This document shows positions 1 through 63,099 of a DNA stretch of 64,000 nucleotides, one piece after another. This stretch comes from a virus. The stretch covers positions 2,610 through 66,609 of the IMG/VR virus record IMGVR_UViG_3300025168_018236; one strand, written 5' to 3'. How positions within the stretch are numbered: position 1 is the stretch's first letter; each line of letters begins with the position of its first letter. Both the position numbers and the translations under genes were made by a program. Below the pieces are notes generated by a model. That model searched no databases and had not been told where the DNA came from. It saw only the letters and a program-made list of their open reading frames with translations.

Positions 1-1
1 G

Positions 2-1243
2 ATCTATCTTGATGCTGGTCTTACCATGTTTACCCGTGGTGCAAACGGACTTCCCGGTGGACCTGCAATTAAGGTTGATGAAACTGCCAAACTTCATGTC
101 GCTGGTATTTCTACAGATGCCGGAATCACCTTTGCAGACGGAACTCATGTAAGCACTGCGTCTGGTCTTGTTGGAGCAACTGGAGCAACTGGAGCAACAG
201 GTGCGGCAGGTAACAATGGTACAAATGGCAACACTGGTGCAACAGGGTCGGCAGGTAATAATGGTACAGATGGCAACACTGGTGCAACAGGGTCGGCAGG
301 TAATAATGGTACAGATGGCAACACTGGTGCAACAGGTGCAGCAGGCAATAATGGTACAGATGGCAACACTGGTGCAACAGGTGCAGCAGGAGATGCAGGT
401 GCCGCTGGTGCGACAGGATTCCCTCCCGGACTTCCTTACATTGCACTGACAGGCGCACTTGATGCAATTAACGCTGCCGGAAAATCTAAATTCCTATCAA
501 ACTCTGCTTCTTTCTTTAACACAGACAGTGATGGTTCGGGACTAACTGGATACTTTAATGGTGCCACTCGCGGTCGGTTGCATGTAGTATCACAAACCAA
601 CCCATCGAGTTTCCTTCTTTATGATTACATAAGTGTTGCTGAAGCATCCAACATATACACATTTACTGGATCTGTAGTTGCCGACAATGGTTTCAATCTT
701 GGAATTTCACCTTTCAATACCGGCAACTGTAGAATATTCTATGTAAATGATGGAGCAACAGGATCAACTGGTGCAGCAGGTAATAATGGTACAAATGGCA
801 ACACTGGTGCTACAGGTGCAGCAGGAGATGCAGGTGCCGCTGGTGCGACAGGAGCAACTGGTGCAGCAGGAGAAAATGGTGGAAATGTTGCACACTTTGT
901 AATCCAAGCATCATCTGGTATTTCTTCGGGTGCTAAGACAACAGCGTTACATTATGTTCCGTTCACATCAACTGCAACACAAGCAGGGATTCGGACAGGA
1001 AGAACAGGTGGAATCACTGCTTCGTTTGTCGTGGCAAATTACGGAGATCCGTTTGGAGATCCGACATCATCGACCAGAACAATTGCTACAGTTAATGCCG
1101 CAACCGCGTCACATGGAGCAACTACATCTACTATGAGTAGTGCATCCATTACAGCAGGAAGTTATATTTACATGAACATCGATGGAATATCATACCCCGG
1201 TATAACAGGGATTCAGGGATTCTTAGTTTATGGGAGAGATTGA
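2..1243 (+). CDS. Collagen-like tail-fibre/virion protein, probably 5'-truncated by the window edge
   Basis: The frame is open from nt 2 up to the ATG at 26. It has two G-X-Y tracts rich in GAT/GNT and a GIS.D.GITF.DGTH motif shared with the 57885 fibre. Confidence 0.7.
   Translation: MYLDAGLTMFTRGANGLPGGPAIKVDETAKLHVAGISTDAGITFADGTHVSTASGLVGATGATGATGAAGNNGTNGNTGATGSAGNNGTDGNTGATGSAGNNGTDGNTGATGAAGNNGTDGNTGATGAAGDAGAAGATGFPPGLPYIALTGALDAINAAGKSKFLSNSASFFNTDSDGSGLTGYFNGATRGRLHVVSQTNPSSFLLYDYISVAEASNIYTFTGSVVADNGFNLGISPFNTGNCRIFYVNDGATGSTGAAGNNGTNGNTGATGAAGDAGAAGATGATGAAGENGGNVAHFVIQASSGISSGAKTTALHYVPFTSTATQAGIRTGRTGGITASFVVANYGDPFGDPTSSTRTIATVNAATASHGATTSTMSSASITAGSYIYMNIDGISYPGITGIQGFLVYGRD
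209..388 (+). repeat. Four tandem 45-bp repeats encoding collagen units (GNNGT[N/D]GNTGATG[S/A]A)
   Basis: Near-identical ggtaataatggtacagatggcaacactggtgcaacagg units at 209, 254, 299 and 344. A further copy plus the GDAGAAGATG flank recurs at ~779-853. Confidence 0.9.
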
Positions 1244-3511: not shown

Positions 3512-3892
3512 ATGGCAAAATATAGCGACATAGATTTAAACTTTTTGAGGAACCCCGTCACGAACGATGTGTCTATCCTTCAGGATGCTGCGTCTATTAA
3601 GGCGGCGGTGAAAAATTTAATTCTGACAGATGCAGGTGAAAGACCATTCAATCCGACACTGGGTTCTTCTATCCGAGGACTTTTATTTGAACCAGCATCG
3701 CCAATTATTGCGAGTGAAATTGAAGCAAGAATTAGAACTGTTCTAAGAAACTTTGAACCTAGAGTTAAGATACTTCAAGTTAATGTCGTAGCAATATTTG
3801 ATAGAAATGAATTTGAAGTAACTATTGGATTTAGAATGACTGGCGATACGAGAACTACGGTAGTTCCAATAACACTTAAGAGGTTAAGGTAA
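3512..3892 (+). CDS. gp25: Baseplate wedge subunit gp25
   Basis: YSDIDLNF..NP, GERPFNPTLGS and FEPRV motifs; synteny. Confidence 0.93.
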   Translation: MAKYSDIDLNFLRNPVTNDVSILQDAASIKAAVKNLILTDAGERPFNPTLGSSIRGLLFEPASPIIASEIEARIRTVLRNFEPRVKILQVNVVAIFDRNEFEVTIGFRMTGDTRTTVVPITLKRLR

Positions 3893-5811
3893 TGGCGACA
3901 AACAGAAAAAACTTATCAGTTAACTCTATAGAATTTGAAGATATTAAAACGAACCTAAAGAATTTTCTCAAAGGTCAAACCGAGTTTAAAGACTACGACT
4001 TTGAGGGATCTGGTATGGCAGTCCTCATTGATCTTCTTGCATATAACACATACTACCAAGGTTTTTACAACAATGTCGTCGCTAACGAAATGTTCTTGGA
4101 CAGTGCTGTCAAAAGAGCATCAGTGGTATCACTTGCAAAGAGTCTTGGTTACACACCAAACTCAAAAACCGCACCAACAGCAATTGTAGATGTGACTCTC
4201 GCAGAAGATCCAGTATCCAATATTCTCCTTCCGGGCGCACAATTCATTACAACCGTGAACGGCAAATCTTTTACTTTTGTAAACACAAAATCAGCAGAAA
4301 TTAACTGGACAAGTGCAACCACTCCGGCGATCACAAATCTAAACATCAAAGAGGGATCTCTGTCTAGTGCAACTTATGTTGTTCCTGACACCGATAACAA
4401 TAGAAAGTATAAAATCAATGATATCGACGCTGACATATCCACAGTAAGTGTAAGAGTCCAAAACTCCCAGACAGATACCACTGGTCTCACAGACACATGG
4501 TCGAGGGCAGGTGATCTCACTGAAATAACCAGTTCATCAAAAACATACTGGATAGAGGAAAACACATCCGGAGAGTTTGAGATTTATTTTGGCGATAATG
4601 TTATTGGAGAAAAACTAGAAACGGGCAACCTAATAACAATCACATATTTAATTACAAATTCCACTGCTGCTAATGGGGCGGGAAATGGAGATAGTGCAAC
4701 TAGTAGAGCGTTTAGTTACCTTAATGCGGCAAACACCGTAGAAGTTAAATCAATTGCCTCTGGAGGAACTGATTTAGAAACAGTTGATGCTATCAGATTT
4801 AAAGCACCCAGAGCATTTACCTCACAGAATAGAGCAGTGACAAAAAATGACTACTCATCTCTTGTAGAATCGAACTTTACTGGTTTTGATTCTGTCTTCG
4901 TGTATGGAGGAGAAGAAGCAGATCCGCCAACATTTGGAAGTGTGTTTATAGCACTCAAACCCAGTATTGGTACAATTGTCAGTGACGCTGTTAAAAATGA
5001 AGTAAAAAATTTCTTAAAGACAAAAGCAGTTTTATCAATCACTCCTACTATTGTTGATCCAGATTACACTTATCTTAGATTAACAGCGGATGTTCTTTAT
5101 GATAGCACAAAAACAACATTATCGGTAGATTCGATCAGTGCTGCCGTTCGTAGTAATATAATCACTAATCTACAAAACAACTTAGGAAAATTTGATCAAT
5201 CCTTCGCAATATCAAAACTTCTAACAGATATTGATTCTGCATCATCCGCGATTGATTCGTCCGCAATTGAAGTGTTGATGGAAAAAAGAATTCTTCCAAC
5301 ATCAATCAAAAATGTATCATATATTCTGTCTTTCGGAAATTCGATAGATCACCCACACGATGGGCATAAAAATGTTGTTACCTCTAACACGTTTAGATAC
5401 TTAGATCCAACGGACAGCGTAACCAAGGACGTTTTTGTAGGAGATGATGGATTTGGAAATATATCTTTCTTTACCAAAGACGGTGTTACTAATGTATTAG
5501 TTTTACAGAATGCTGGAACAGTTGATTATGGAAATGGGATTGTTAGGATAGATCAAGTTCAAATATCCTCTCCTGTAGATTCCCCAGAAATCAAAATATT
5601 TGCAGTAGCAAAAAATCAAAGATATGTTTCTGTCCGCGACAAAATTATTTTTAATGATTACGCCATTGACACCTCTGCCATAACAATCAGAACAAACGGT
5701 ATTGTTCAAACCACATCAACCAGAAGTTCAACTTCAAGCACTCTCGGATCCTCACAGACGAATTCGTCTAGCACCTCAACGTCTAGCAGTTCAAGTGGTT
5801 CTGGGTATTAA
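3892..5811 (+). CDS. gp6: Baseplate wedge subunit gp6
   Basis: FKDYDFEGSG, LAYNT, EMFLDSA, LGYTP and QNRAVT..DY motifs. Confidence 0.95.
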   Translation: MATNRKNLSVNSIEFEDIKTNLKNFLKGQTEFKDYDFEGSGMAVLIDLLAYNTYYQGFYNNVVANEMFLDSAVKRASVVSLAKSLGYTPNSKTAPTAIVDVTLAEDPVSNILLPGAQFITTVNGKSFTFVNTKSAEINWTSATTPAITNLNIKEGSLSSATYVVPDTDNNRKYKINDIDADISTVSVRVQNSQTDTTGLTDTWSRAGDLTEITSSSKTYWIEENTSGEFEIYFGDNVIGEKLETGNLITITYLITNSTAANGAGNGDSATSRAFSYLNAANTVEVKSIASGGTDLETVDAIRFKAPRAFTSQNRAVTKNDYSSLVESNFTGFDSVFVYGGEEADPPTFGSVFIALKPSIGTIVSDAVKNEVKNFLKTKAVLSITPTIVDPDYTYLRLTADVLYDSTKTTLSVDSISAAVRSNIITNLQNNLGKFDQSFAISKLLTDIDSASSAIDSSAIEVLMEKRILPTSIKNVSYILSFGNSIDHPHDGHKNVVTSNTFRYLDPTDSVTKDVFVGDDGFGNISFFTKDGVTNVLVLQNAGTVDYGNGIVRIDQVQISSPVDSPEIKIFAVAKNQRYVSVRDKIIFNDYAIDTSAITIRTNGIVQTTSTRSSTSSTLGSSQTNSSSTSTSSSSSGSGY

Positions 5812-5824
5812 TAGGAGATAACCC

Positions 5825-8314
5825 GTGCCTTTAAACATTTTTGGTGGGTCACTTCTCCTACCGTTAAGAATTGATGGATACACTTTTGATAAACTTCCGT
5901 ATGATCCGGCAGTTGATGAACGCTTTTCTACACAACTAAAAGACCAACTTCCAGATTTCGTTCTAGAAAACTACGAGACATTTGTTCAATTTGTAGAAGC
6001 GTATTATGAGTGGTCTGAGCAACATGGAAACCCAAGAGCAGAGGGTGTAAGATTAGGAACATACAGCGATATTGATGAAACACTTGATAGTTTCTTAGAA
6101 TATTTCCGAAACACATATATCAAAGATTTCCCTTATCAGTTGGCAGACGGCACCAACGAAAAAACTCTAATCAAAAATGTTGGACACATGTATAAAGCAA
6201 AGGGTTCCAAAGCATCCTTTGACTTATTATTTCGTGTTCTGTTTAACACAACAATTGAAGTTGACTACCCCAAAGATAGAATTTTAAAATTATCTGCAAG
6301 CACTTTTGATGACAGACAGTTCATAAGAATTGCTCCTATGTTTTCTGTAGAAGAAGCACTAACAATAAAAAATAGTTTACTTGTTCAGAAAAGTCCAATA
6401 AATAAAGAAATCTATGCGACTGCTTTAATTGATAATGTCAATTATGTACATGAGGGATCGGTTGATTTCTTCTCTCTTGCTGTACAAGACATATCAGGAA
6501 CTTTTACAACAGAAAACCCAGTAGAAGTTACCACATCAGGGTCAACCTCTGCGGCATATACCATTCCAGTTTTACCAACTCTCGATTCTTTAAGAATTAA
6601 TACAGGCGGAACGGGGTATGAACTTGGTGATGATGTTACAGTCAGCGACCAATACGGAAACGCACTACTGAGAGCAAGTATCAATAACGTCGGACCACGC
6701 GGAGATATTCGTGGGTTCGAGTACAAAGAAAACTTTGGAGTATATCGATCAAACGAAAGTCTTGCATTTTCCTTTGAAACTTTCAGCGGAACAGGTGCAA
6801 GTTTATCTGGTCTAGGTGAAGTTGTTCTTACTGATGGACCTGACACATACAAAGATGATACCGGAAAACTTAGTGGTCGTTCCTTCATACAGGATAGTTT
6901 CTTCTATCAAAACTATTCTTATATTATCAGAGTCAATAAGAGTTTACAACAATTTGCCGACGCAGTTCGTCGCTTAGTTCACCCATCAGGAACTTTGATG
7001 TTTGCGGAATACATCAACGAGGTTTCTATGTCTGGTGATGCGGGAGTGACTTCAGATTCGTTCACAAGACACACTCCGATAATTGGTCACTACTTACCAC
7101 ACACATTCGGGACCACCATTGACCCAAGAGGATTTACATTCACAACCGGTGCAGGTTCAACTTTCTTTGATTTTTATCCCCTTGGATATAATGGACAAGA
7201 TGGAAGCACGACAGAAGACTTTTTCCAACTCGCACTTTCAAGTGGAACATATGGAACTCCTCACCTTTTTCCTGAAAATGAAATCATACACGCTCCAGAC
7301 ACAATTCGTGTTAGAAATCATAACGCATCGTTCGTTTCCCAAAGTGCCGAATGGGATAAGGCAGAAATCAATAGAATTCAGGCGGGCGGAGCATTTGGAT
7401 GTACAGGATACATCGGAGCAACATCAGATTCAAACGGAGAACATGTCGGTTTGTTTGGATTTTTCCCCGTAGGAAGTTCAAGAACAAACACCATAAACAC
7501 CAACAGCACCAGATTCGGAACATATGTCAAACACTATGGAGGTTATACTTCCCCAAGTGAGACCAGTTTGTCTGGTGGATTCTCTGGTGGACAAGTTACT
7601 ATGGTTGGTGGGACCGACTCCGCAACTGCTGATTACTGGATTGTACACAGACACCCTGCTCACCTTGAGTTACCGACTTTGGGTCCGACCGGCGAAAGAA
7701 ATATTGTTAGTATTCCAATGAAACCAGTGCTAGTTGGGAATGAAACCATATCCACAATCACACCAACGACTGATGGATATTATTATAATATAGGAAGAGG
7801 ACTTACTCTAAACGGAACACCATATCAAATTGGAGAAGTTGTAACACAAACTAGAAACAATGAACCAATCGCAATAGGTAGAGTAATTAATTACACTGCA
7901 TCAGCATCCCACCAAGGGAACGGCGAACAATATTTCAATATAGGAATTGACACATTAAACATTGAAGTATTGAATGGTCGGTTTACAAAGGGTCTGTTAG
8001 CGGCAGACTTCAACCAAGATGGCAAAGTAGATGGAGCAGACCTTGTAGGTGTTCTCTCTGCATACGGAGATACTGGTGGAACCGCCGATCTTAACAAAGA
8101 TGGATTGGTGGATGGTGGAGATCTCGCTCTTCAATTATCGGCATGGTATCAGACACCAACACCAATAATTGGTGAGACTTCAGGTGGAGCAAGACTCGTC
8201 GATCCCTCATTCGATGGCACACTATATACTAGTATAACGCATGATACAAGTTGGATGGATGTTCCTATCAGCATAATGGTAAACGATATCGAATACAGTA
8301 ATACAACAAACTGA
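5825..8314 (+). CDS. Baseplate wedge protein, gp7-like, with an inserted dockerin-like tandem
   Basis: QLPDFV..Y..FV.F..AYYEW, YKAKGS..SF..LFR.LF and IQDSFFYQNYSY...LVHPSG motifs; lies between gp6 and gp8; GTG start after AGGAG. Confidence 0.8.
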   Translation: MPLNIFGGSLLLPLRIDGYTFDKLPYDPAVDERFSTQLKDQLPDFVLENYETFVQFVEAYYEWSEQHGNPRAEGVRLGTYSDIDETLDSFLEYFRNTYIKDFPYQLADGTNEKTLIKNVGHMYKAKGSKASFDLLFRVLFNTTIEVDYPKDRILKLSASTFDDRQFIRIAPMFSVEEALTIKNSLLVQKSPINKEIYATALIDNVNYVHEGSVDFFSLAVQDISGTFTTENPVEVTTSGSTSAAYTIPVLPTLDSLRINTGGTGYELGDDVTVSDQYGNALLRASINNVGPRGDIRGFEYKENFGVYRSNESLAFSFETFSGTGASLSGLGEVVLTDGPDTYKDDTGKLSGRSFIQDSFFYQNYSYIIRVNKSLQQFADAVRRLVHPSGTLMFAEYINEVSMSGDAGVTSDSFTRHTPIIGHYLPHTFGTTIDPRGFTFTTGAGSTFFDFYPLGYNGQDGSTTEDFFQLALSSGTYGTPHLFPENEIIHAPDTIRVRNHNASFVSQSAEWDKAEINRIQAGGAFGCTGYIGATSDSNGEHVGLFGFFPVGSSRTNTINTNSTRFGTYVKHYGGYTSPSETSLSGGFSGGQVTMVGGTDSATADYWIVHRHPAHLELPTLGPTGERNIVSIPMKPVLVGNETISTITPTTDGYYYNIGRGLTLNGTPYQIGEVVTQTRNNEPIAIGRVINYTASASHQGNGEQYFNIGIDTLNIEVLNGRFTKGLLAADFNQDGKVDGADLVGVLSAYGDTGGTADLNKDGLVDGGDLALQLSAWYQTPTPIIGETSGGARLVDPSFDGTLYTSITHDTSWMDVPISIMVNDIEYSNTTN

Positions 8315-8321: not shown

Positions 8322-10268
8322 ATGGCAGATCTATCAAGTAATCTTAAAGTTTTTCTCGCACGCGAACTCCAGAGACAATTTTCGTCTTTAGATAATAGCG
8401 TTGCTTTATTCATTTCTGGTGCCAGTAGCACTACCACTAAGGGTTCTCTTGCTAGTGGACTAGTGGATAATAGTATTGAAAAAGAACTAGACACCCGAAG
8501 ACAACTACAAACTGCCAAAATATTAACCGACTCCTCAATCGCATTGATGATCCCACGGGTCAATTGGACATCAGGCATAATCTATCAAACCTATTCACTT
8601 AGTGCGGATAATTCAACTAGAAACTTTTACGTTTATACAACAGATGGAAATATCTACGTTTGCATCTCCAATGGTGGAGGAAAACAATCATTAGAGGAAC
8701 CAACCAGTACAGGAACTAGTTTAGAATATCTCGGAAACGGATATGTTTGGAAGTTTATGTGTAAGGTTCCATCTGATCTTATTGATTTTATAGACTCCGA
8801 ATATATTCCAATTAAAGAATTACCCATATACGACAATAAACCGTTTGCATATGGTTCCGAAGACAAACAATTACAATATGCGGTACAGTACACTTCTAGT
8901 GGGAGTGTTGTTGACTCTATAGATGTATCTACACAAGGAAGTGAATATGCCCAAACGATAAAATCATCGAATGGTCATATAGCAGTCCGCTCCGACATAA
9001 ACACTGTTACCCTTGATAACCGAGCAAGCGGAAGCAACGACATATACAATGAATACACGATTAGAATAGTAAATGGAACTGGTGTTGGTCAGTTTAGAAA
9101 AATTACAGCATATGATGGTTCACTGAAAATAGCAACCGTAGAATCAAACTGGAGTGTTCTCCCAGATTCTACTAGTTTATATGAAATAATTCCCACAATC
9201 AATATAACAGGTGACGGCACCAATGCAACTGCCTTTGCAAAAATGCATTCATACGCAGCAAACACAATAGACGCAGTAGTCGTTGCAAATGGAGGTTCTA
9301 ATTATAGCACTGCCTCCGCCACGGTTTCTCCAACAGCAAGTCCTACTGCAACTGTTCTTTCTGTTTACGTCAATCCCATTGGGGGTGTTGGTCGTGATAC
9401 TGTTTTTGATCTTCTGGCAAAAAGAATTTCTATTCTTATAAAAATCGATGGAAGAGAAAATTTTCGTGCCGTTCTTGGAAATGACTATAGAGAGTATGGA
9501 CTTTGGTTGTCTCCCAAAATTGGAGCGGGTTACACAAAAGCAGGAAAAATTGCTGGAACTGATGCATATATCAGAACCACTGTAGATCTAGAGTCAAGCA
9601 CCGGACAAACATTTGATGATATATTCACATCGGGTGGAGAATTTTTATTCGGAACCGAATCTTACAATACCGGCAAAGTTGCAAACGTAACGAATGCATT
9701 TACAAAATTTAGTCCCACTCTTGGAAAAGTTATACTAGATGGATTAAATTCTAGACTAAAAAACGGAGAAACCATTCACACGTTTACAACAGACTCCTCT
9801 TCGGGTGGGTATACCTTTACTGGAAAAACGGCAAAAGTTAAGAACACTTTATTAGAGGACTCTATTAGATCTTCCTTCACTGAAGTATACAGGTGTTCAC
9901 ATAAACTAGGAGTTAGTAGAACAGATGGATTCTCATTCGATCCCGGAACACCCTACACATCCATACCTTTCGATGCAGCAGCAACTGGGGGTAGTGGTGG
10001 GAGAGGAATCGTCCTTGATTTCACCAACATAAATGGTGGCAGTGGGGATGTTTTCTTAAGTAATGTTGTTTCCGGATCTTCATCTAATACAACCGGTTTT
10101 ATTGCTGGAGAAACTTTAGCAGTAAATAATTTAGAACTAGATATTACTAGTGTTTCTCCCCCAGAATTGAATTTGTTTTCTGGGAAAATGTTATACATAA
10201 ATGATATAGAACAAGTAACAAGGAACGCAGAGCAACTTGATTTGTTTAAAATTAATTTTGACTTCTAA
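8322..10268 (+). CDS. gp8: Baseplate wedge subunit gp8
   Basis: IPRVNWTSG..Y, FYVYT...YVCISN, GYVWKFM and C-terminal SGKMLYIND...R motifs. Confidence 0.88.
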   Translation: MADLSSNLKVFLARELQRQFSSLDNSVALFISGASSTTTKGSLASGLVDNSIEKELDTRRQLQTAKILTDSSIALMIPRVNWTSGIIYQTYSLSADNSTRNFYVYTTDGNIYVCISNGGGKQSLEEPTSTGTSLEYLGNGYVWKFMCKVPSDLIDFIDSEYIPIKELPIYDNKPFAYGSEDKQLQYAVQYTSSGSVVDSIDVSTQGSEYAQTIKSSNGHIAVRSDINTVTLDNRASGSNDIYNEYTIRIVNGTGVGQFRKITAYDGSLKIATVESNWSVLPDSTSLYEIIPTINITGDGTNATAFAKMHSYAANTIDAVVVANGGSNYSTASATVSPTASPTATVLSVYVNPIGGVGRDTVFDLLAKRISILIKIDGRENFRAVLGNDYREYGLWLSPKIGAGYTKAGKIAGTDAYIRTTVDLESSTGQTFDDIFTSGGEFLFGTESYNTGKVANVTNAFTKFSPTLGKVILDGLNSRLKNGETIHTFTTDSSSGGYTFTGKTAKVKNTLLEDSIRSSFTEVYRCSHKLGVSRTDGFSFDPGTPYTSIPFDAAATGGSGGRGIVLDFTNINGGSGDVFLSNVVSGSSSNTTGFIAGETLAVNNLELDITSVSPPELNLFSGKMLYINDIEQVTRNAEQLDLFKINFDF

Positions 10269-19674: not shown

Positions 19675-20133
19675 ATGACATTTAATAAAGATATAGACAC
19701 ATCAAGTTTTGATGATTTTGATTTTGGGTTTGAACTAGTAGACAGTCCTACTCAGACTAACACCCCACAAGAGCAACAGTCAGTTTCTGTTGACACTAGT
19801 GAGATTGATGATCGACTAGAGTCGCTTGAAGGTAAAATTAATAATGTTCTTAACATTGTATCTCTTAATGATTCTGGTGATGATATCAAACAGGCAATCG
19901 AAGAACAAGGATCATGTATCAATAATGCACTGGACTCGATAGAAGAAGTCAAAGACAGTTTAGAAAAAGACTACGAAAAAAAACTAGAGGAAATTGAGAA
20001 TCTCGTTCTCCCCCTTCTAGTAAATCTTACAAAAAATCCAGAGAGAGAATTTATAAAGTGGCCGAATCGAGCAGACTCTGTTCAAGGTCACATCAACAAA
20101 ATCTTAGAGGTAACCAGAGGCAATGGCGACTAA
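19675..20133 (+). CDS. Hypothetical coiled-coil protein
   Basis: DFGF N-terminus and PLL.NL.KNPE..I.WPNR C-terminus resemble a small ORF family I recall from T4-like phages. Confidence 0.6.
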   Translation: MTFNKDIDTSSFDDFDFGFELVDSPTQTNTPQEQQSVSVDTSEIDDRLESLEGKINNVLNIVSLNDSGDDIKQAIEEQGSCINNALDSIEEVKDSLEKDYEKKLEEIENLVLPLLVNLTKNPEREFIKWPNRADSVQGHINKILEVTRGNGD

Positions 20134-41413: not shown

Positions 41414-41881
41414 ATGAACATCTTCGTACTTGATAAAAATCCAATTAGAGCAGCAAAGATGGCGTGTGATAAACATGTCGTAAAAATGATTTTAGAGTCA
41501 GCACAGATGCTATGTTCGGTTCAACCAGAAGGAACCGCCCCATACAAAAGATCTTTTTATAACCACCCATGTACAAAGTGGGTGCGTGCTTCTGATGCAA
41601 ATTATGATTGGTTGATCGAACACGGACTTGCTTTGTGTCGAGAATATACTTGTCGATACCTCAAGCACCATAAAAGCGAAAAGGTAATTAAATGGTGTGA
41701 CGAAAACAGACCACAACTTCCTTATATTGGACTCACACCACATCCAACGTGTATGCCCGATAGGTATAAGGTAGAGTGTGCGATTGAATCGTACAGAAAT
41801 TATTACAATGGCGAGAAAGCATATTTTGCTAAGTGGAAGAATGTTGATACACCCACTTGGTTTACAGGAGTATTTCAATGA
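41414..41881 (+). CDS. Pyrimidine-dimer DNA glycosylase/endonuclease V-like protein
   Basis: MNIFVLD..P..AA...CDKHVVKMILESAQML, NHPCT.W and YRNYY motifs. Confidence 0.8.
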   Translation: MNIFVLDKNPIRAAKMACDKHVVKMILESAQMLCSVQPEGTAPYKRSFYNHPCTKWVRASDANYDWLIEHGLALCREYTCRYLKHHKSEKVIKWCDENRPQLPYIGLTPHPTCMPDRYKVECAIESYRNYYNGEKAYFAKWKNVDTPTWFTGVFQ

Positions 41882-42864
41882 AACATGAAACAGTGTTAGT
41901 CACAGGTGGTGCAGGGTATATCGGATCACATGCAGTCCATGCCCTACTGGCATCGGGAAGAAAAGTTGTTGTTATTGATAAAGATACTAAGGCATGTGAG
42001 AATCTAAGAAAAACATTCTCTAGACGAAAGAACAAACCACAGATACACAACTGTGACATTGATAACGATGTATGGGTCAATGGTATTCTTGAAAATGAAA
42101 AACCATCGGCAGTGATGCACTTCGCCGCAGATATATGTGTTCCTGAATCTGTTCAGAATCCTTTGAGGTATTATAATAACAATACTGCTAAGACTATTAG
42201 TTTTGTAGAAAAACTTATTAGAAATGGCGTTCATCGATTTATTTTCTCTAGCACCGCAGCAGTATATGGGATGCCGCAGAACGCAGACAACATTGTAGAA
42301 AAAACAGTGTGTCAACCAATTAATCCATATGGACAATCTAAACTAATGGTTGAGCATGTTCTAAAGAAAGTTTCAGATTCAATTCCTGCATTTGAATACA
42401 CTTCTTTTAGGTACTTCAATGTTGCAGGATCTCATATTGATGGAAAAGTTACTGATGTTCGGTGGACAGAAAAACTCAACGTAGTTCCTACCTTCATCTC
42501 ACGGATTCTCAGTGGGAGTCAAATTTATGTTTACGGTACAGATTATAACACTCCAGATGGAACTGCTATTCGAGATTATATTCATCCAGAAGATATTATT
42601 TCTGCACACATGATCGCACTTGACGCGGAAGTTACCGGTGTGTATAATCTCGGATCTGGTCAGGGATTTTCTGTGTGGAATATGATTGAAAATTTTGTTT
42701 CCGTTACAGGAGAAGAGTTAGATGTAATACATAAACCACGGAGAACAGGAGACCCTGAAGTCCTAATTGCAAACTCTGACAAGTTTAGAAATATTACAGG
42801 TTGGGAACCAAAATACACATTGAAAGAAATGGTTGCTACAGCATGGAAGGTGTATGGTAGATGA
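41878..42864 (+). CDS. galE: UDP-glucose 4-epimerase
   Basis: VTGGAGYIGSH, HFAA...V.ES, SSTAAVYG, PYGQSK, RYFNVAG and DGT..RDYIH motifs. Confidence 0.93.
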   Translation: MKHETVLVTGGAGYIGSHAVHALLASGRKVVVIDKDTKACENLRKTFSRRKNKPQIHNCDIDNDVWVNGILENEKPSAVMHFAADICVPESVQNPLRYYNNNTAKTISFVEKLIRNGVHRFIFSSTAAVYGMPQNADNIVEKTVCQPINPYGQSKLMVEHVLKKVSDSIPAFEYTSFRYFNVAGSHIDGKVTDVRWTEKLNVVPTFISRILSGSQIYVYGTDYNTPDGTAIRDYIHPEDIISAHMIALDAEVTGVYNLGSGQGFSVWNMIENFVSVTGEELDVIHKPRRTGDPEVLIANSDKFRNITGWEPKYTLKEMVATAWKVYGR

Positions 42865-43964
42865 AAATGAAACGTGATTATATTAAAAAGGCGTATGGTT
42901 CAGAACCAACTTGGGACAATGATATTCCATTGGAAGATGTTGATGCAGGAGATGTTCTTATAAGTATCAATTGGTATGTCACTACTTCAGATAAGAGAAA
43001 CTACAAGAAGTGGACTCTTGATTGGATGAAGGATAAGAGTAGTTCTTGGACGGATGAAGATATTAATCTTGCAAAAAGATCTCCTCTGAAAGAATTTAGA
43101 ACATACGGTCATTATTGTAGAATGCTTTCCCGTGGGTTTCCGCATATCAACCAACTCACGGATGTGGTTGAAACTTATATTACTAAACTGATTGGTCTTG
43201 GTAAGTCTAAGAAGGCATCTCGTTCTGAGAAGGTTGTAATCTCTCCACAAGAGAGAATGAAAAATCAAGTCACTGAACTTGCAGGAGAGATGATGGGTCT
43301 ATGTGATTCGGTCAATGAATCTCTAATGAACAAGACGGATGACCACAAGCAGATTAACATCTACAAGTGGTTGAATCAAAATAATGTTGGTTATCGCCAA
43401 GCAGAAATGCTTTCTTTGGTGTTCGCTCCTGCACTAGCAGAACTGGATGAACTTCTGAAAGGCAAAGACGAGCAACTGATGGAGGGTTATTCTTATCTTG
43501 GTAAAAGACAACAGAAGCAACTTCATAAGTTTATGACAGGTCTTGTTTCTGATTGTATGAGATATCATGCGAACAATAAAACATCACGAAAGAAGAGAAA
43601 GACTGATCCAGCGAAGGTTGTGTCTAAAGTACAATACGAAAAGTCCTCAAAGGAGTTTGGAATCAAAAGTATTGATCCAGTCAATATATTAGATTCTTCA
43701 AAAGTCGTAGTTTATAGTACCAAGTACAACACTTTGAGTGTATACTATGCATGTGTAGGACAGACTCTATCGATCAAGGGAACTACCATTCAGAACTTTG
43801 ACGAGGATAAGTCTGAGTCTCGAACAATCAAGAAACCAAAGGACATTATTAAAACAATTAAGAACCAGAGTACACTTGATAAGGTTTGGAACTCTCAACA
43901 CAGTATGGTTAAGAGTCCAAACGGAAGACTAAACGCAAACACAGTAATTTTGAAAGTTTTTTAA
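42861..43964 (+). CDS. Conserved T4-like hypothetical protein
   Basis: G.EP.W, QL.EGY..L, KGTTI.NFD and NGRLN..T.ILK motifs recalled from T4-like phages. Confidence 0.65.
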   Translation: MKMKRDYIKKAYGSEPTWDNDIPLEDVDAGDVLISINWYVTTSDKRNYKKWTLDWMKDKSSSWTDEDINLAKRSPLKEFRTYGHYCRMLSRGFPHINQLTDVVETYITKLIGLGKSKKASRSEKVVISPQERMKNQVTELAGEMMGLCDSVNESLMNKTDDHKQINIYKWLNQNNVGYRQAEMLSLVFAPALAELDELLKGKDEQLMEGYSYLGKRQQKQLHKFMTGLVSDCMRYHANNKTSRKKRKTDPAKVVSKVQYEKSSKEFGIKSIDPVNILDSSKVVVYSTKYNTLSVYYACVGQTLSIKGTTIQNFDEDKSESRTIKKPKDIIKTIKNQSTLDKVWNSQHSMVKSPNGRLNANTVILKVF

Positions 43965-44843
43965 ATGATTCTCCTCGATACGAACCAGTTGTTTCTCGCC
44001 TCTTATTTTGTACACCGAAAACTCCACGAAGAACTAGATGAATATATGCTCAGGCATTTGTTTATGAATACTATTCGTATGTACCGAAAACAATTTAAGG
44101 ATGAGTACGGAGAAGTAATTCTATGTCTTGAGTCTTCTGATTGTTGGAGGAAAGAAGTTTTTCCAAACTACAAGGCAAATAGAAAGAAGAAAAAGAAGGA
44201 TGATTCTCATGATTGGAATCAGGTCTTTGGATTGTTTGAACAATATCTTTCTGAGATCAGTGAAGTGTTTCCTTACATGCAACTTCGCGTACCACACACA
44301 GAAGCAGATGATATCATTGCCGTAGTGTGTCAGCAGTTTCATTGTGATGAAAAGATTATGATTCTGTCTAATGATAAGGACTTTATGCAACTTCAAAGGT
44401 ATCCTTCAATTAAACAGTATAGTCCGATTAAGAAGGAATTGCTTGAGTGTAGGAATCCTAAAGATTTTCTACTAGAACATATTCTAAAGGGAGATACCTC
44501 TGATGGTATTCCTAATATTCTATCTGACGGGGATACGTTTATTGTCGATGGCAAGAGACAAAAACCAGTTGGAAAAAAGCGAATGATGCAATTGATTTCT
44601 GAGGGCAAACTCTCGAAAATGGAAAATTGGAAACGTAACCAAACACTGGTTGACTTTACCTGTATTCCTGATACAATACGAGATGAAATCGTTAGGACAT
44701 ATAAGAATGAAAAAAGTATTCGAGAAAATCAACGACAAGAAATTAAGATCCGTCCGGGGCAGGGATTGTTTAGTAATGCATCAAATTTCCTCTTGGAGAA
44801 GAAGTTGAATAATCTACTAGATCTGGCAGGCGATTTTGTATGA
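43965..44843 (+). CDS. rnh: Phage RNase H (5'-3' exonuclease)
   Basis: WRK..FPNYKANR, EADDIIA, S.DKDF.QL and GD.SDGIPN motifs. Confidence 0.94.
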   Translation: MILLDTNQLFLASYFVHRKLHEELDEYMLRHLFMNTIRMYRKQFKDEYGEVILCLESSDCWRKEVFPNYKANRKKKKKDDSHDWNQVFGLFEQYLSEISEVFPYMQLRVPHTEADDIIAVVCQQFHCDEKIMILSNDKDFMQLQRYPSIKQYSPIKKELLECRNPKDFLLEHILKGDTSDGIPNILSDGDTFIVDGKRQKPVGKKRMMQLISEGKLSKMENWKRNQTLVDFTCIPDTIRDEIVRTYKNEKSIRENQRQEIKIRPGQGLFSNASNFLLEKKLNNLLDLAGDFV

Positions 44844-45040
44844 AAAAGAAGAAGAAAGATCGTCCCCCTGTAGGAGAAGGTCGTTTCGATGACCATGACT
44901 ATCATGGGTATTACAAGTCGGCAAGAAAGAGTGAAAAGCGAAATCGCAGACACAATGCAAAGAACAATGTTCGAGACATTGCCAAGGGGGGATTAACCCC
45001 AGAAGATTATGAGGACTACTACAATAATGACAACAACTGA
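44840..45040 (+). CDS. Small basic hypothetical protein
   Basis: 66 aa; ATGA overlap with rnh; fills the gap to gp45. Confidence 0.5.
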   Translation: MKKKKKDRPPVGEGRFDDHDYHGYYKSARKSEKRNRRHNAKNNVRDIAKGGLTPEDYEDYYNNDNN

Positions 45041-45041
45041 A

Positions 45042-45728
45042 ATGACAACTAAAATGAAACTATCAAAGCAATCAATCGACATTCTAAAAAACTTCAATGG
45101 AGTAAATGCAAATCTCCATATCGTTCCCGGTAGGGAACAAGTTACTGTTTCTCCCATGAAGAACATCATGGTCGAAGCAACATTCGAGGAGGATTTTCCC
45201 TCTGAGTTTGCCATCTGGGATCTTAGTAAGTTCCTCGGAACAATTTCTTTGTTCGATGATCCTGAACTAGAATTCCATGACAAACATGTAACCATCTCTA
45301 GTGGTTCTACTGACGTTGTGTATCATTATGCAGAACCGAAACTCGTTAAGGGTTGTAGACCCGACCGAGAATTTAATATGCCAGAGACCGTTGTTCACTT
45401 CGATCTTTCAAACAGAGAATTTATTGAACTTCAACGTGCGTCTGCTGTTCTTCGTCTTCCTGATCTTTGTATTACGGACAATAATGGATCTATTGATCTC
45501 ATCTCGATGGACAAGAATGATGTAACCAGTAATCGTTACTCTATCACCGTTTCGGAAGAAGCACCTGATGCTTCTTTTAAGATGTATCTTAAGAGTGAAT
45601 ATCTTAAGTTGCTCCCCGGTGATTACTCGGTCGCTATCTCAGACAAGGTTGTGAGTCGTTTCACAAATAACGATATTAATCTTACTTATTACATTGCTCT
45701 TGACTCGGACTCCGTATACAATGGTTGA
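45042..45728 (+). CDS. gp45: Sliding clamp gp45 (start could be 45054)
   Basis: MKLS...ILKNF..N, FP.EFAI.DL..FL, LKLLPGDY.V and YYIAL motifs. Confidence 0.94.
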   Translation: MTTKMKLSKQSIDILKNFNGVNANLHIVPGREQVTVSPMKNIMVEATFEEDFPSEFAIWDLSKFLGTISLFDDPELEFHDKHVTISSGSTDVVYHYAEPKLVKGCRPDREFNMPETVVHFDLSNREFIELQRASAVLRLPDLCITDNNGSIDLISMDKNDVTSNRYSITVSEEAPDASFKMYLKSEYLKLLPGDYSVAISDKVVSRFTNNDINLTYYIALDSDSVYNG

Positions 45729-45732
45729 AACT

Positions 45733-46671
45733 ATGACAGAAGAATTCTTGTGGGTTGAAAAGTATCGCCCCCAGACAATTGAAGATTGCGTTCTACCTGA
45801 AGAACTAAAAAAGTCCTTTATGGAAATCGTCGAGAGTGGGGAGATGCAGAATCTCCTCCTCTCTGGCGGTCCCGGTTGTGGTAAGACTACCGTTGCACGG
45901 GCATTGTGTGATGAACTAGATTGTGATCATATTGTAATCAACTGCTCAGAAGATGGAAACATTGATACACTTCGTACAAAGATCCGAAACTTTGCTAGTA
46001 CGATTTCTCTATCTGAACGGAAGAAGGTTGTGATCCTAGATGAGTTCGATTATTCAAATGCTCAGTCTACACAACCAGCACTTCGTGGTTTTATCGAAGA
46101 GTTCTCAAAGAACTGTCGGTTTGTTCTGACTTGTAATTACAAGAACAGGATTATTGAACCGCTTCATTCACGATGCACATGTATCGACTTCCGTTTTGGT
46201 GCGAATGAGAAGAAGCAATTGATGCCTTCATTCCTAAACCGTATTGAGTTTATTCTGAATGCCGAGGGTGTTGGTTACGACCAGCGAGTTATTGCCAAGT
46301 TGATCACTCGCTATGCTCCAGACTGGAGACGTATTATCAATGAATGTCAACGCTATGCAGTTGGTGGGGATATTGATGTGGGTGTTCTCTCTGATTCGGG
46401 CGATGTAAAGGTCGTAGAATTGATGAAGTATCTTAAAGAGAAAGACTTCACCAGTGTCCGTAAATGGGTGTCTACTAATATCCATAATGATCAGAGTCTG
46501 ATCTTCCGGAAGATCTATGACTGTCTTTATGAAAAGATGCAACCGCAATCTATTCCGAGTGCAGTTTTGATTCTTGCAGATTACCAATACAAGGCAGCGT
46601 TTGTTGCTGACGCGGAAATTAATCTAACCGCATGTCTTACAAATATTATGATGGAGTGTGATTTTAAATGA
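45733..46671 (+). CDS. gp44: Clamp loader ATPase gp44
   Basis: LWVEKYRP, GPGCGKTT, ILDEFD and PLHSRC motifs. Confidence 0.96.
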   Translation: MTEEFLWVEKYRPQTIEDCVLPEELKKSFMEIVESGEMQNLLLSGGPGCGKTTVARALCDELDCDHIVINCSEDGNIDTLRTKIRNFASTISLSERKKVVILDEFDYSNAQSTQPALRGFIEEFSKNCRFVLTCNYKNRIIEPLHSRCTCIDFRFGANEKKQLMPSFLNRIEFILNAEGVGYDQRVIAKLITRYAPDWRRIINECQRYAVGGDIDVGVLSDSGDVKVVELMKYLKEKDFTSVRKWVSTNIHNDQSLIFRKIYDCLYEKMQPQSIPSAVLILADYQYKAAFVADAEINLTACLTNIMMECDFK

Positions 46672-47261
46672 AAAAATTAAATGGCGAGTGGGGTATTGAA
46701 ACACAATACCCAGATATTAAAGGTGTTTTCTCTGAGTGTGATCAAGATGTTTGGGTGGTGGAAACTCTCGATGAAAAAGAAAATGGATACTTTCTTGACA
46801 TTGGATGTTCTGTCCCTTGGATGTGGAACAACACTGCACTACTTGAGGCAAATTATGGTTGGAGAGGGATAGCGATTGATCAGAGTTTTGAAAATAATGT
46901 TTATGTTCCTCTTTCAAAAGAACGTGGAATTGAACATGACTGGAAGAGCAGACCAAACACAATTTGTGTTGAAAAATCTGCCCTTGAAATTGATTACGAA
47001 AAGTTGCTGGATGAGCATAATGCCCCTGCGGTAATTGATTTTTTGTCCGTTGACATCGAACCCTCGGAAAAAATACTAGAGGTATTTGAAATGTTACCAC
47101 ATGACAAATATAAATTTAGAACAGTTGCCTTCGAGCATAATGATTGGTTAGAAGGATCAGAGTGGGTAGAACACACACGAAAGGTAATTGCTTCGTATGG
47201 ATACACCTATGTTAAAACAAGTATGCAAGATGATTATTATATCATGGAAGGAATAGACTGA
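46668..47261 (+). CDS. FkbM-like SAM-dependent methyltransferase
   Basis: SECDQD.WV, GYFLDIG...NNT.LLE...GW.G, IDFLSVDIE and FEHN motifs. Confidence 0.78.
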   Translation: MKKLNGEWGIETQYPDIKGVFSECDQDVWVVETLDEKENGYFLDIGCSVPWMWNNTALLEANYGWRGIAIDQSFENNVYVPLSKERGIEHDWKSRPNTICVEKSALEIDYEKLLDEHNAPAVIDFLSVDIEPSEKILEVFEMLPHDKYKFRTVAFEHNDWLEGSEWVEHTRKVIASYGYTYVKTSMQDDYYIMEGID

Positions 47262-47857
47262 TGGCACTTCGTCGTGAAACATTAAACGAAATGTACGCAA
47301 TGGAAAGTCCAGAATGTTGTTTCGTGGAGACTGGGACTGGACCAACAGCGTCCGCCACACTAATGGCAATCGATGTTGGATTTAAAAAAATTAGGACCAT
47401 AGAGTTTCAACCAACTCTATACTCCGAAAATGTTACCCGATTCAAAGACATGCCTCATGTTACTGTATATTCTGGAAGTAGTGCGAAGGAACTCTATAAC
47501 ATGTGTCATGATATAAAAACAGACATATTCTTTTGGTTAGACGCACATTATTCGGGAGGGATAACTGGTCGGGCAGAAAAAATATGTCCTCTCATCGAGG
47601 AACTGGAACATATCAAAAATCTCTCTTCAAATACCCACACCATTTGTATTGATGACGTTAGAGACATGTACAATGGGTACATGCAAGTTAGTGTTGAAGA
47701 AGTTAAAGCAAAACTATTGGAAATAAATCCTGACTATGATATACGGTTTGTTCGGGGGACTGAAGATGAACCAGAGTGGGCATTCAGAGGAAATGAGGTA
47801 ATGGTTGCCACCATTAGAGACTACTCTTCTGTTGGAGATTGTGTAAAATCAACATGA
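47261..47857 (+). CDS. Class I SAM-methyltransferase-like protein
   Basis: FVETGT, TIE, G.S, FWLDAHYSGG, P..EEL..I and IDDVR motifs. Confidence 0.68.
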   Translation: MALRRETLNEMYAMESPECCFVETGTGPTASATLMAIDVGFKKIRTIEFQPTLYSENVTRFKDMPHVTVYSGSSAKELYNMCHDIKTDIFFWLDAHYSGGITGRAEKICPLIEELEHIKNLSSNTHTICIDDVRDMYNGYMQVSVEEVKAKLLEINPDYDIRFVRGTEDEPEWAFRGNEVMVATIRDYSSVGDCVKST

Positions 47858-48231
47858 ATCTAAGTGAAGTTCTAAATTCAGTCAATTACAACAAAGAGGA
47901 TATATTTCAAGATCTGCCCGATGTGACAGAAAAAGAATATGTTCCCTTCGTTGTCAACAAGTGTTTGTCATATTTTCCTGACACAATCATACAGGCAAAC
48001 AATATGAATATGCATCATGGAATTGATCCCAAGATGCAGTACCACTATTTGAAGAATTCTATCAGGAAGAGGAAGAGATTTTCCAAGTGGAACAAGGCGA
48101 CAACTCCGGAGAGTCTGGAACTTGTCAAGAAACACTATGGATATTCTAACCAGAAAGCAGAGGAGGCACTTAGAATCCTCACTCACAAGCAATTAGAACA
48201 CCTCGAAAACCTACATAAAGGAGAATCATAG
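47854..48231 (+). CDS. gp62: Clamp loader small subunit gp62
   Basis: YVPFVVNKCLSYFPDT, RKRKRFSKW and YGYSN.KA..AL motifs. Confidence 0.94.
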   Translation: MNLSEVLNSVNYNKEDIFQDLPDVTEKEYVPFVVNKCLSYFPDTIIQANNMNMHHGIDPKMQYHYLKNSIRKRKRFSKWNKATTPESLELVKKHYGYSNQKAEEALRILTHKQLEHLENLHKGES

Positions 48232-48259
48232 TATGATTTAATTTAAAAAGGTGAAAAAT

Positions 48260-48664
48260 ATGGGTGAGAAAATAGAAGTTGAAGATCTCATCGAGGTGAC
48301 TTTAAACTCAGATGAAGACTTCTTAAAGGTAAAAGAAACATTAACACGGATTGGTGTTTCTTCTCGAAAAGACAAAAAGTTGTACCAGTCCTGTCACATT
48401 CTCCACAAACGGGGAAAGTATTATATTGTACACTTCAAAGAATTGTTTTCTCTTGATGGTCTTAAATCAGATTTTTCTGAAGAAGACGAGGGAAGAAGAA
48501 ATGCAATTGCTGGGTTGCTTGGTCAGTGGGGACTAGTTAATATAGTCGATGTGGATAAAAGTTCCGATCCAATTACCCCTATAAGTAAAATTAAGATTAT
48601 TAAATACTCCGAAAGGGATGATTGGGAATTGTGTCCTAAATATCATATAGGAAAGTCGAGATAA
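48260..48664 (+). CDS. regA: Translational repressor RegA
   Basis: DFLKVKETLTRIGV, LYQSCHILHKRGKYYIVHFKELF and W.L..KY.IG motifs. Confidence 0.97.
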   Translation: MGEKIEVEDLIEVTLNSDEDFLKVKETLTRIGVSSRKDKKLYQSCHILHKRGKYYIVHFKELFSLDGLKSDFSEEDEGRRNAIAGLLGQWGLVNIVDVDKSSDPITPISKIKIIKYSERDDWELCPKYHIGKSR

Positions 48665-48671
48665 GTTCGCT

Positions 48672-49334
48672 ATGAAAATTGATCTTTGTAATGTTCCAGT
48701 GAGGTGGATTAATGTTGATACCGCCACGGAAAACGATAAACTAATGGAAGAATTGTGTGAGCGATTATGCATGGATAATGCTAGTCGCTTTTCTGCCGTT
48801 ACCGATATCCCTCCACATGAGGGAGTCCGAGAAGGTGAAGAACACTATAGAAATTGTGCGGAGTCTCATTTTCGAGTTCTCCAAGAAGCAATCGATAATA
48901 AATCTTTTCCTCTTTTAATTCTTGAAGATGACGTAGATATTGAAGAGTCGGTATTTACTACAACCCTACAAAATATTCCAGACGATGCTGATGCCATATA
49001 CATGGGGACTTCTCATGGAGATGGTAATTATTCTGCTATTGATGTTGGCAATGGATGGATGAAAATTGAAAGAGTATTTGCCACTCATTCGATTATGTGG
49101 TTAAATGAAAAGATGGCAAAAGAAGTAATTGAAACAGGGAAGCGATGGATCTATGGAAAGAATCATCCCTTTGATGTTGGTATTGCATATGAACTACAAC
49201 CAAGGTTCAATGTATACGCACCACATGTTCCTTTCTTCTTCCAAGCAGATGCAAAGAATAATAAAAATAAATGGGAGTCAATGACAAGAACTCCTCTAAA
49301 ACAGTCAAAGAAATTTTCGGTATTCACACTATGA
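48672..49334 (+). CDS. GT25-like glycosyltransferase
   Basis: WIN..., RFSAV, C..SH, LILEDD and DAIY.G motifs. Confidence 0.7.
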   Translation: MKIDLCNVPVRWINVDTATENDKLMEELCERLCMDNASRFSAVTDIPPHEGVREGEEHYRNCAESHFRVLQEAIDNKSFPLLILEDDVDIEESVFTTTLQNIPDDADAIYMGTSHGDGNYSAIDVGNGWMKIERVFATHSIMWLNEKMAKEVIETGKRWIYGKNHPFDVGIAYELQPRFNVYAPHVPFFFQADAKNNKNKWESMTRTPLKQSKKFSVFTL

Positions 49335-50137
49335 TAACTTTCAGTAAACTTGGAAACTGGGGACGACTAGGTAACCAGATGTTCCAGTACGCAATGCTCT
49401 ATAGCGTTGCAAAAACTAACAATTTTAATTTCTGGTATCCTCATGATTTTTATCCAAATGGTATTATGTTACATGAGTGTTTCTCTGGTGTAGGTAAGGA
49501 CATTTCTGATAGACCAAATACTTTGGGTGATGTTTACGTTGAACCCGAGGGACACGTTCATTTTGATCCATTAGTTTTTGAACAACCAGACAACACAGAA
49601 TACTTTGGATATTTTCAAAACTCAAAATATTTTTCTGGTTATGAAAATGAAATTAAAAAACAGTTCGTGTTTAAGGACGAGTTTATACAAGCAGGTAATG
49701 CTATTCTTGATAGAGTCCCGAGTGGAAAGAAAAAAATCTCATTACATGTGAGAAGAACAGATTATCTAGTATTGGATAAAATTTATACCACGCTAGGCAT
49801 AGATTATTATAACTCTTGCTTAGAAAATCATGATAAATCAGATTCTTTTGTTTTAGTTTTTAGTGACGATATTGAATGGTGTGTTAAGAATTTCAAATTG
49901 GATCGACCATACGCTATCGTTGATACAAGCGAACACGGACAATGTGGAGCATATATCGACATGTACATGATGACACAGTGTGACGTTAATATTATTGCAA
50001 ATAGTTCTTTCAGTTGGTGGGCAGCATGGTTGGGTAAAAATGAAAAGGTGTACGCACCCAAAGACTGGTTTAATCCAGAAAATAAATCGGACGTAAATTA
50101 TGATGGATTTTTTCAAAAGTCATGGGAGTTGGTATGA
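49331..50137 (+). CDS. GT11 alpha-1,2-fucosyltransferase-like protein (copy 1)
   Basis: GRLGNQMFQYA, GYFQ..KYF, HVRRTDY, FSDDI.W and IIANSSFSWWAAWL motifs. Confidence 0.9.
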   Translation: MITFSKLGNWGRLGNQMFQYAMLYSVAKTNNFNFWYPHDFYPNGIMLHECFSGVGKDISDRPNTLGDVYVEPEGHVHFDPLVFEQPDNTEYFGYFQNSKYFSGYENEIKKQFVFKDEFIQAGNAILDRVPSGKKKISLHVRRTDYLVLDKIYTTLGIDYYNSCLENHDKSDSFVLVFSDDIEWCVKNFKLDRPYAIVDTSEHGQCGAYIDMYMMTQCDVNIIANSSFSWWAAWLGKNEKVYAPKDWFNPENKSDVNYDGFFQKSWELV

Positions 50138-56028: not shown

Positions 56029-56037
56029 GGATTTATT

Positions 56038-62661: not shown

Positions 62662-63099
62662 GTGAAATTTTTTAAAATGACTACACAGGCAGTCGCACCA
62701 AAAAGGGCAACTGCTGGTTCCGCTTGTTATGATTTGTATTCTTGTGTTGGTCCGGACGGACTGACGATCAATCCCGGAGAAAGAAAAGCAATTCCGACTG
62801 GAATTGTATTGGAGATTCCTGAGCAACATGTTGTAAAGGTATTTGCAAGATCCGGACTATCATATAAAAAAGGAATAACGCTGGCGAACTGTGTCGGGAT
62901 TATAGATCACGACTACAGGGAAGAGTTGTATATTCTATTACATAATACAAGTAATGAATCATATAAAATTGAACATGGTGAACGAGTCGCACAGATGTTA
63001 CTAGAAAAAGTTTTAAACTATGAACTACTTGAAACTCATGAAAAACCTGCTACAATAGAGACACGCAACGGCGGCATTGGGAGTACCGGTAATGATTGA
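62662..63099 (+). CDS. dut: Trimeric dUTPase
   Basis: SACYDL, ARSGL, GIIDHDYR, GERVAQ and R.GG.GSTG motifs; GTG start after AGGAG. Confidence 0.95.
   Translation: MKFFKMTTQAVAPKRATAGSACYDLYSCVGPDGLTINPGERKAIPTGIVLEIPEQHVVKVFARSGLSYKKGITLANCVGIIDHDYREELYILLHNTSNESYKIEHGERVAQMLLEKVLNYELLETHEKPATIETRNGGIGSTGND

Follow-up and report, generated by a model that had tools for sequence, protein, structure and literature searches.

The gp7-like baseplate wedge protein encoded in the viral record IMGVR_UViG_3300025168_018236 (IMG/VR) contains, in a loop near its C-terminus, an inserted type I dockerin with two predicted calcium-binding motifs. We analysed a window of 64,000 nt (positions 2,610 to 66,609 of the record), to which all coordinates given without a record label refer. 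By sequence comparison the module is a short dockerin variant of the planctomycete type. We propose, as a reading that may equally well hold or fail, that it is an accessory module for Ca-dependent adhesion whose target is a socket on the host surface.

The initial annotation had noticed two DxNxDGxVDxxD loops at positions 8003-8146, and the translation is exactly as claimed: they fall in residues 727-774 of an 829-aa open reading frame (ORF). EF-hand calcium ligands occupy loop positions 1, 3, 5, 9 and 12, and both 12-residue loops provide them (D728/N730/D732/D736/D739 and D755/N757/D759/D763/D766). A short amphipathic helix comes after each loop, and the result is the tandem of ~22-residue loop-helix repeats that defines type I dockerins. 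Pfam Dockerin_1 (PF00404, cut-off 22.9) scores 15.7 bits for the whole 829-aa protein and 26.4 bits for a 68-aa piece alone (window 7973-8176); the matching piece of four relatives scores 28.6, 34.8, 39.7 and 41.4 bits. EF-hand families do not reach their cut-offs with the piece from the window. NCBIfam NF041540 (dockerin_GC, cut-off 29) yields 29.8 bits for the piece, 21 bits for the whole protein, and 29.1, 18.8, 28.6 and 26.5 bits for the four relatives, one of which thus reaches the cut-off. A profile of the five pieces (A1) matched clostridial dockerins in the PDB: 4fl4_A (2.6e-7), 2y3n_B (6.5e-6), 1daq_A (9.7e-6) and 2mte_A (1.1e-5). We take the segment to be a type I dockerin that consists of two predicted calcium-binding loop-helix motifs. 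No loops besides these two turned up when all of the 66,609-nt contig was scanned for the motif in six frames, and Pfam and PHROG scans of the window proteins revealed neither a cohesin nor a second dockerin.

The protein that carries the module matches Pfam PF23786 (Baseplate_wedge, 47.8 bits, cut-off 27) and phrog_17744 (baseplate wedge subunit, 3.2e-52), and its gene lies between gp6-like and gp8-like genes in a structural module of the T4 type. Comparison of the orthologue profile with T4 gp7 by hhalign aligned residues 39-147 with T4 residues 650-759 (probability 82%, E 1.1e-5), a match that covers 96 columns only; the insert lies ~580 residues beyond the aligned region of the window protein. 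No solved structure was matched when the gp7 profile was compared with the PDB, and the ESM Atlas returned viral baseplate clusters only, under 0.9 and without structure.

The distribution of the module among gp7 orthologues identifies it as an insertion into a loop predicted to be permissive, ~55 residues before the gp7 C-terminus. Seven IMG/VR relatives were compared: the module is in the same place in the four that are closest (64-71% identity), and precisely these ~46 residues are missing from the three that are more distant (34-55%). Both loops are found at the same site in 16 of 28 database orthologues (P0002-P0029); two others retain remnants, namely P0012, a decayed copy in the sister of the window protein and P0003, and P0019, half a module with a deletion. 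The remaining ten have no dockerin, and one of them (P0028) contains in the same loop a different module of ~90 residues, which resembles residues 213-289 of the gp8-like protein (31% identity over 83 aa by BLASTP, E 3e-8 against a database of 15 proteins). This small module (..IVNGTGVGQ..) of the gp8-like protein, at 8958-9188 of the window, thus recurs as the alternative insert of P0028. The annotation's further claims, that the loops split one structural motif and that the segment is an insertion, are borne out by the alignment: insert-free orthologues join ..EVLNGxF(T/S)x.. and ..P(I/V)xG(D/E)xSG.. by a short loop, and with 10 of the 28 close orthologues devoid of it the segment is not standard in gp7. 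An exhaustive phmmer search retrieved 5026 gp7 relatives at E<=0.001. Full dockerins occur among the best 150 of these only in three fragments of the same clade and in P0088 (see below), a rarity that likewise argues against a standard part of gp7. Isolated dockerin-like elements are seen in distant gp7 relatives: P0145 and P0181 have one loop-helix ~440 residues in, and P0150, P0180 and P0193 have single loops near residue 440.

We calculated a maximum-likelihood tree from 29 rows, with the insert columns excluded and with L003, L005 and L006 omitted as presumed duplicates of database rows. It groups all dockerin-bearing rows in a 21-row clade (Shimodaira-Hasegawa-like approximate likelihood ratio test, SH-aLRT, 100). 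On this tree the distribution takes two changes, a gain and, in the P0027-P0029 branch, a loss; shuffled labels needed 9.0 changes on average, and 0 of 500 shuffles gave as few as two. This reconstruction shows a single entry long ago at the base of the clade, with retention in most members and loss or decay in a few. In the dockerin-free relative G410, each ORF of the window between 2655 and 32780 has a counterpart except a 152-aa ORF at 19675-20133. That ORF, whose neighbours are the gp13-like and gp14-like neck genes, also occurs in the dockerin-bearing records G406 (94% identity) and G407 (75% identity); its absence from G410 is a single contrast, to which we give no weight.

Composition agrees with an old insert. 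The guanine-plus-cytosine (GC) content at third codon positions (GC3) is 0.31 in the segment vs 0.29 in the rest of the gene, which gives no sign of recent capture; the total GC of the segment (0.49) is higher than that of the gene because of its Gly, Asp and Ala codons. The suggestion that the domain had been captured from the host therefore finds no support, given a single gain at the base of the 21-row clade and a GC3 like that of the gene, and other dockerin genes of related phages are equally possible donors. An attempt to trace the donor through identities did not resolve it, since the gp7 dockerins have a median identity of 0.50 to selected planctomycete ones, 0.46 to other phage dockerins and 0.56 to each other. 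Conservation was assessed in 16 intact sequences, comprising 15 database orthologues (P0014 was omitted as near-identical to P0013) and L003. In loop 1 and its helix D728, D732, D739, L740 and L744 are invariant (16/16) and N730 is found in 13/16, and in the second repeat D755, D759, D763, D766, L767, L771 and W774 are invariant (16/16) and N757 occurs in 15/16; overall, calcium ligands and the Leu and Trp core residues are kept in 13-16 of the 16 sequences, and exposed helix positions of the module vary. The module has a mean pairwise identity of 0.58, compared with 0.64 for the rest of the C-terminal region and 0.72 for the N-terminal one.

The nearest cellular sequences bear out the assignment of the tandem to a planctomycete type of C-terminal tag. 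We scanned one genome per species with patterns derived from a five-sequence alignment (at least 600 rows, 135 confirmed). Of the best 80 cellular loci, which were selected by these query-derived patterns and some of which come from metagenome-assembled genomes (MAGs) whose titles may be wrong, 75 are titled Planctomycetota (Phycisphaerales, Phycisphaerae, Isosphaeraceae, Planctomycetia etc.), with 31-63% identity over ~48 aa; by assembly the proportion is 41/46 (hand count of accession prefixes). In these loci 99 of 112 full-length dockerin domains end no more than six residues from the stop codon and are thus C-terminal tags, the form in which Planctomycetota carry this short variant on many large proteins. 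NF041540 has 80, 39 and 18 matches in three Phycisphaerae genomes, 10 in a MAG titled Chitinophaga, one in a MAG titled Gammaproteobacteria, and none over the cut-off in 14 control genomes. Both MAG titles are doubtful: that of G004 (source of L014) is Chitinophaga pinensis, and G003 (source of L081), with the title Gammaproteobacteria, falls in a class in which the genomes sampled measure ~0.7-1.3 Mb. With 20 candidates scored per genome, the gp7 piece has matches in 61 of the 301 Phycisphaerae genomes searched (best 4.9e-14), and in ten of these it matches 19 or 20 times. In the class of G003, used as a control, 12 of 301 genomes give single weak matches (best 4.3e-7), although this control is itself weak because its genomes are only ~1 Mb in size.

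Cohesins, the partners of cellulosomal dockerins, were found in the Phycisphaerales genome G001 (eight matches, seven over the cut-off). In this freshwater genome (L102-L105) the cohesin ORFs end in a common tail with a single Ca-loop-like motif (..ADINRDGRVDQADIVAFMQG..), and one 309-aa ORF combines a cohesin with a C-terminal dockerin. A "planctosome" of cohesin-dockerin pairs has been proposed for freshwater Phycisphaerae (PMC6461901).

Records of related phages contain further Dockerin_1 matches outside the gp7 proteins discussed above, as well as a gp7 homologue with many copies. The latter, P0088 (L124:6001-12444), is a 2148-aa protein with 15 tandem dockerins (residues 782-1681; Pfam 322.9 bits), which follow a Gly/Asp-rich linker and precede a ~450-aa C-terminal domain without a Pfam match. 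Its contig (L124) is a T4-like viral one with the gp25-gp6-gp7-gp8 order and a GC content of 0.50, and its relative L125 encodes a 722-aa gp7 without dockerins. As P0088 represents a separate gp7 lineage, dockerins have been acquired by gp7 at least twice.

Outside gp7, one widespread group of viral proteins (family A; ~340-365 aa, 52 clusters, 34 of them with precomputed PF00404) has invariant His, Asp and Ser residues that follow one another as in chymotrypsin-fold proteases, the Ser within GDSGxP, and a weak profile match to the SPATE protease Hbp (0.0028). Its members have no signal peptide and bear a C-terminal dockerin, which is replaced by another module in six of them. Family A is also present in G410, whose gp7 is dockerin-free. 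Its protease was considered as a link to the host and rejected: 62 of 401 Phycisphaerae genomes match it, through the C-terminal dockerin part only among the 150 of 185 matches listed. Family B, with a signal peptide and an internal dockerin, and a 797-aa protein with a C-terminal dockerin are encoded next to family A genes. Neither family was found on the 66.6-kb contig, which is 36% complete, and PHROGs offered no name for any of ten other dockerin-bearing viral proteins.

We favour an adhesion role for the gp7 dockerin because the module is dispensable, its loop is permissive and the display is multivalent in a second gp7 lineage. T4 gp7 is present in six copies at the baseplate's periphery, where the fibre adaptors gp9 and gp10 dock (PMC3004832). 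If the window protein has the same copy number and position, six calcium-loaded dockerins would be displayed outward. These would plug into a cognate socket on the host envelope, which could be a cohesin or some other receptor for the dockerin-tagged proteins that the host itself makes, and the plugging would aid reversible adsorption or positioning of the baseplate. Several points weigh against this proposal. The steps that lead from display to binding are inferred, and exposure of the loop is deduced from indels alone. Pfam cohesin (PF00963) was detected neither in G002 (marine) and G005, two Phycisphaerae genomes that are rich in dockerins and either marine or low in GC, nor in G004, so that in the first two the candidate socket would have to be one that Pfam does not identify. 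Finally, phage dockerin proteins without a signal peptide, such as family A, fit a virion-internal or a lysis role as well.

A role within the virion, in which the dockerin would be a joint that holds a phage partner (a fibre, an adaptor or an accessory enzyme) on the baseplate, seems unlikely to us, even though T4 gp7 comparably holds gp9 and gp10 (PMC3004832). In its favour, annotation of the window proteins named no gp9, gp10 or gp11 family, and the further dockerin proteins of related phages, some of them without signal peptides, would fit a scaffold-based assembly. Yet no Pfam cohesin was found in the contig itself (G000) or in the five related phage records G406-G410 (13-46% complete), and the dockerin-free G410 retains the baseplate and tail gene set. 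Decay or loss of the dockerin within the clade also speaks against a joint of this kind, and the 15 tandem copies of P0088 are hard to square with one defined joint. A structural calcium staple, by which the F-hand pair would stabilise the gp7 C-terminal domain in calcium-rich seawater without any partner, is quite improbable. The fold is dispensable, being absent from 10 of 28 orthologues and lost in one lineage, 15 copies strung on a linker, as in P0088, would not be expected of a stabiliser, and the same module tags unrelated phage proteins; these observations outweigh the pattern of conservation, strong only at Ca ligands and core residues with a variable surface, and the lack of a partner in cohesin scans of the window proteins, G000 and the related records, both of which a staple would explain.

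The adhesion reading calls for a host with a matching socket, and we regard the chances as roughly balanced that this host is a dockerin-rich marine planctomycete (Phycisphaerales-like). A marine habitat is indicated by the occurrence of the DNA in metagenomes labelled marine, seawater, plankton, viral, sponge or brine (20 rows, 15 studies), of which two runs may be the source itself. To our knowledge, phages of planctomycetes are scarcely known. Besides the query-derived selection of the cellular loci and the small genomes of the control class, the following results limit the case for a planctomycete host. The portal and capsid proteins are only ~52% identical to those of cyanophages, the Methylophilales phage Melnitz and pelagiphage HTVC008M, and a tRNA scan detected no tRNA genes. 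The Planctomycetota host put forward by the initial annotation gained nothing from a search of the type used for spacers of clustered regularly interspaced short palindromic repeats (CRISPR): with two candidates scored per genome, window 1-40000 had no spacer-like match in 401 Phycisphaerae genomes, and the best match (43 nt, 86% identity) fell on the dockerin loop itself. Median GC is 0.66 in the planctomycete loci vs 0.40 in the phage, a gap that is a weak argument because T4-like cyanophages also have a GC content far below that of their hosts. On these results, Planctomycetota are a lead to the host rather than an established one. That the dockerins instead bind another marine bacterium or non-host material (particles, mucus, sponge matrix) and thus enrich the phage where its hosts live, a role similar to that proposed for Ig-like domains on phage capsids, is very unlikely: portal and capsid relatives and the spacer search assign no host, sponge and brine metagenomes also contain the DNA, and 5 of the best 80 loci have non-planctomycete titles, but the nearest cellular dockerins are overwhelmingly planctomycete and the module sits on the baseplate, the organelle of host contact, and not on the capsid. 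Extending host-directed adhesion to the other phage dockerin proteins, we suggest very tentatively, and with more doubt than confidence, that a guild of marine T4-like phages may have adopted a Phycisphaerales-like dockerin display, in which gp7 proteins with 1-15 dockerins per subunit would engage host sockets for adsorption and the tagged protease-like and signal-peptide families would be loaded onto those sockets in infected cells.

The 66,609-nt contig belongs to a marine, uncultured myovirus of the T4-like group, with structural and replication modules of the T4 type in a single orientation. The order of genes is gp25, gp6, gp7, gp8, a 1886-aa DUF4815/tail-collar protein, neck, terminase, sheath and tube, followed by portal, prohead protease, scaffold, major capsid protein, UvsY, UvsW, gp55, gp47/46, gp45/44/62 and RegA (coordinates of the baseplate genes, of the parts of the dockerin module and of the additional phage dockerin proteins are listed in the table). 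CheckV estimates the completeness of the contig at 36%, and IMG/VR classifies it as "provirus"; both contig ends appear to consist of phage or sugar-island genes, and the 5' end has no visible host flank. A collagen-repeat fibre protein (G-x-T/A triplets) of at least 1283 aa, encoded at window 1-1243 and in the 2609 nt upstream, runs off the 5' end of the contig, and a second collagen-repeat protein is encoded at 61106-61834. A large sugar-modification island lies within the replication module (41857-57429 and 63077-64000). It contains two NAD-epimerase/dehydratase-like genes, an FkbM methyltransferase, a GT25-like gene and a short DegT-like aminotransferase, together with two GT11 (fucosyltransferase family), two GT10-like and two GT2 genes.

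Table. Positions of the gp7 dockerin module, the neighbouring baseplate genes and dockerin proteins of related phages (window coordinates unless a record is named)
Feature	Position	Strand	Evidence or remarks
gp25-like baseplate wedge gene	3512..3892	+	PF04965 49.1 bits; phrog_261 2.1e-48
gp6-like baseplate wedge gene	3892..5811	+	phrog_219 1.4e-153; Gp6-like_1st 82.5 bits
gp7-like baseplate wedge protein, 829 aa, GTG start	5825..8314	+	PF23786, phrog_17744
Upstream flank of insertion loop (..NGRFTKGLLA)	7973..8002	+	Aligns in orthologues with and without insert; G718, F720 invariant (alignment A2)
Inserted type I dockerin module (predicted), residues 727-774	8003..8146	+	Pfam, NF041540 and PDB profile matches; clean indel vs orthologues
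Predicted Ca-binding loop 1, D728-D739	8006..8041	+	Helix 1 after it: 8042-8068
Predicted Ca-binding loop 2, D755-D766	8087..8122	+	Helix 2 after it: 8123-8146
Downstream flank of insertion loop (YQTPTPIIGE..)	8147..8176	+	P780, G783 invariant (A2); joined to upstream flank in insert-free orthologues
gp8-like baseplate wedge gene	8322..10268	+	phrog_438 1.2e-50
Family A members	L111:1423-2448, L112:5416-6510, L090:2750-3820, L092:3167-4237, L095:3191-4231, L099:1-1014, L093:1679-2782		
Family B (signal peptide and internal dockerin)	L111:302-1369, L093:3041-3835		Adjoins family A gene in two viral records
797-aa protein with C-terminal dockerin	L090:3934-6324		Adjoins family A

Accessory domains on phage virion proteins are already known; a dockerin on a baseplate protein appears to be new as far as the literature and the deposited genomes searched can tell. 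We found no description of one in that literature, which was in part judged by title, and a tblastn search with the piece against 50,697 deposited phage records gave nothing at E<=0.001. If the plug does fit a host socket, adsorption would proceed by mimicry of a tag with which the host anchors its own proteins. On the much more tentative guild reading given above, this would amount to a new principle of receptor recognition, mimicry of a host sorting tag, and the phages would be the first T4-like ones of Planctomycetota. A fitting plug would also offer a clue from sequence to the host of a marine phage clade that is widespread, and the recombinant module could act as a bait to label and sort host cells.

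Comparison with known systems places the protein and its module as follows. The window protein shares its Pfam and PHROG families and the gp25-gp6-gp7-gp8 gene order with T4 gp7, but the T4 protein has 1032 aa, only ~100 columns align, and no T4 counterpart is detectable for the window protein's C-terminal half. With cellulosomal type I dockerins (PF00404; 4fl4_A, 2y3n_B and CelS, 1daq_A/2mte_A) the module has in common the two loop-helix repeats and the D/N/D/D/D calcium ligands. It differs from them in its length of 48 residues, with a linker 5-6 residues shorter in the HMMER alignments, and in its position, as the cellulosomal dockerins are terminal on secreted enzymes and have a cohesin partner, whereas the gp7 module is internal to a virion protein. 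The planctomycete GC-type tags (NF041540) are the closest sequences, with the same short spacing and the same ..LL..W(G) helix ends. They occur in dozens of copies per Phycisphaerae genome, where the function of the tag itself is unproven, and they sit at the very C-terminus (99/112), an extreme placement not shared by the gp7 module, which is followed by 55 residues up to the end of the protein. Accessory Ig-like and carbohydrate-binding modules in phage structural proteins were reportedly described by Fraser et al. 2006, and the gp7 module resembles such domains in being small, dispensable, patchily distributed and placed in a predicted surface loop that accepts alternatives. It is distinguished from them, and from the accessory domains known on baseplates, by being a dockerin, that is, a protein-protein plug of a kind that binds a matching socket with high affinity.

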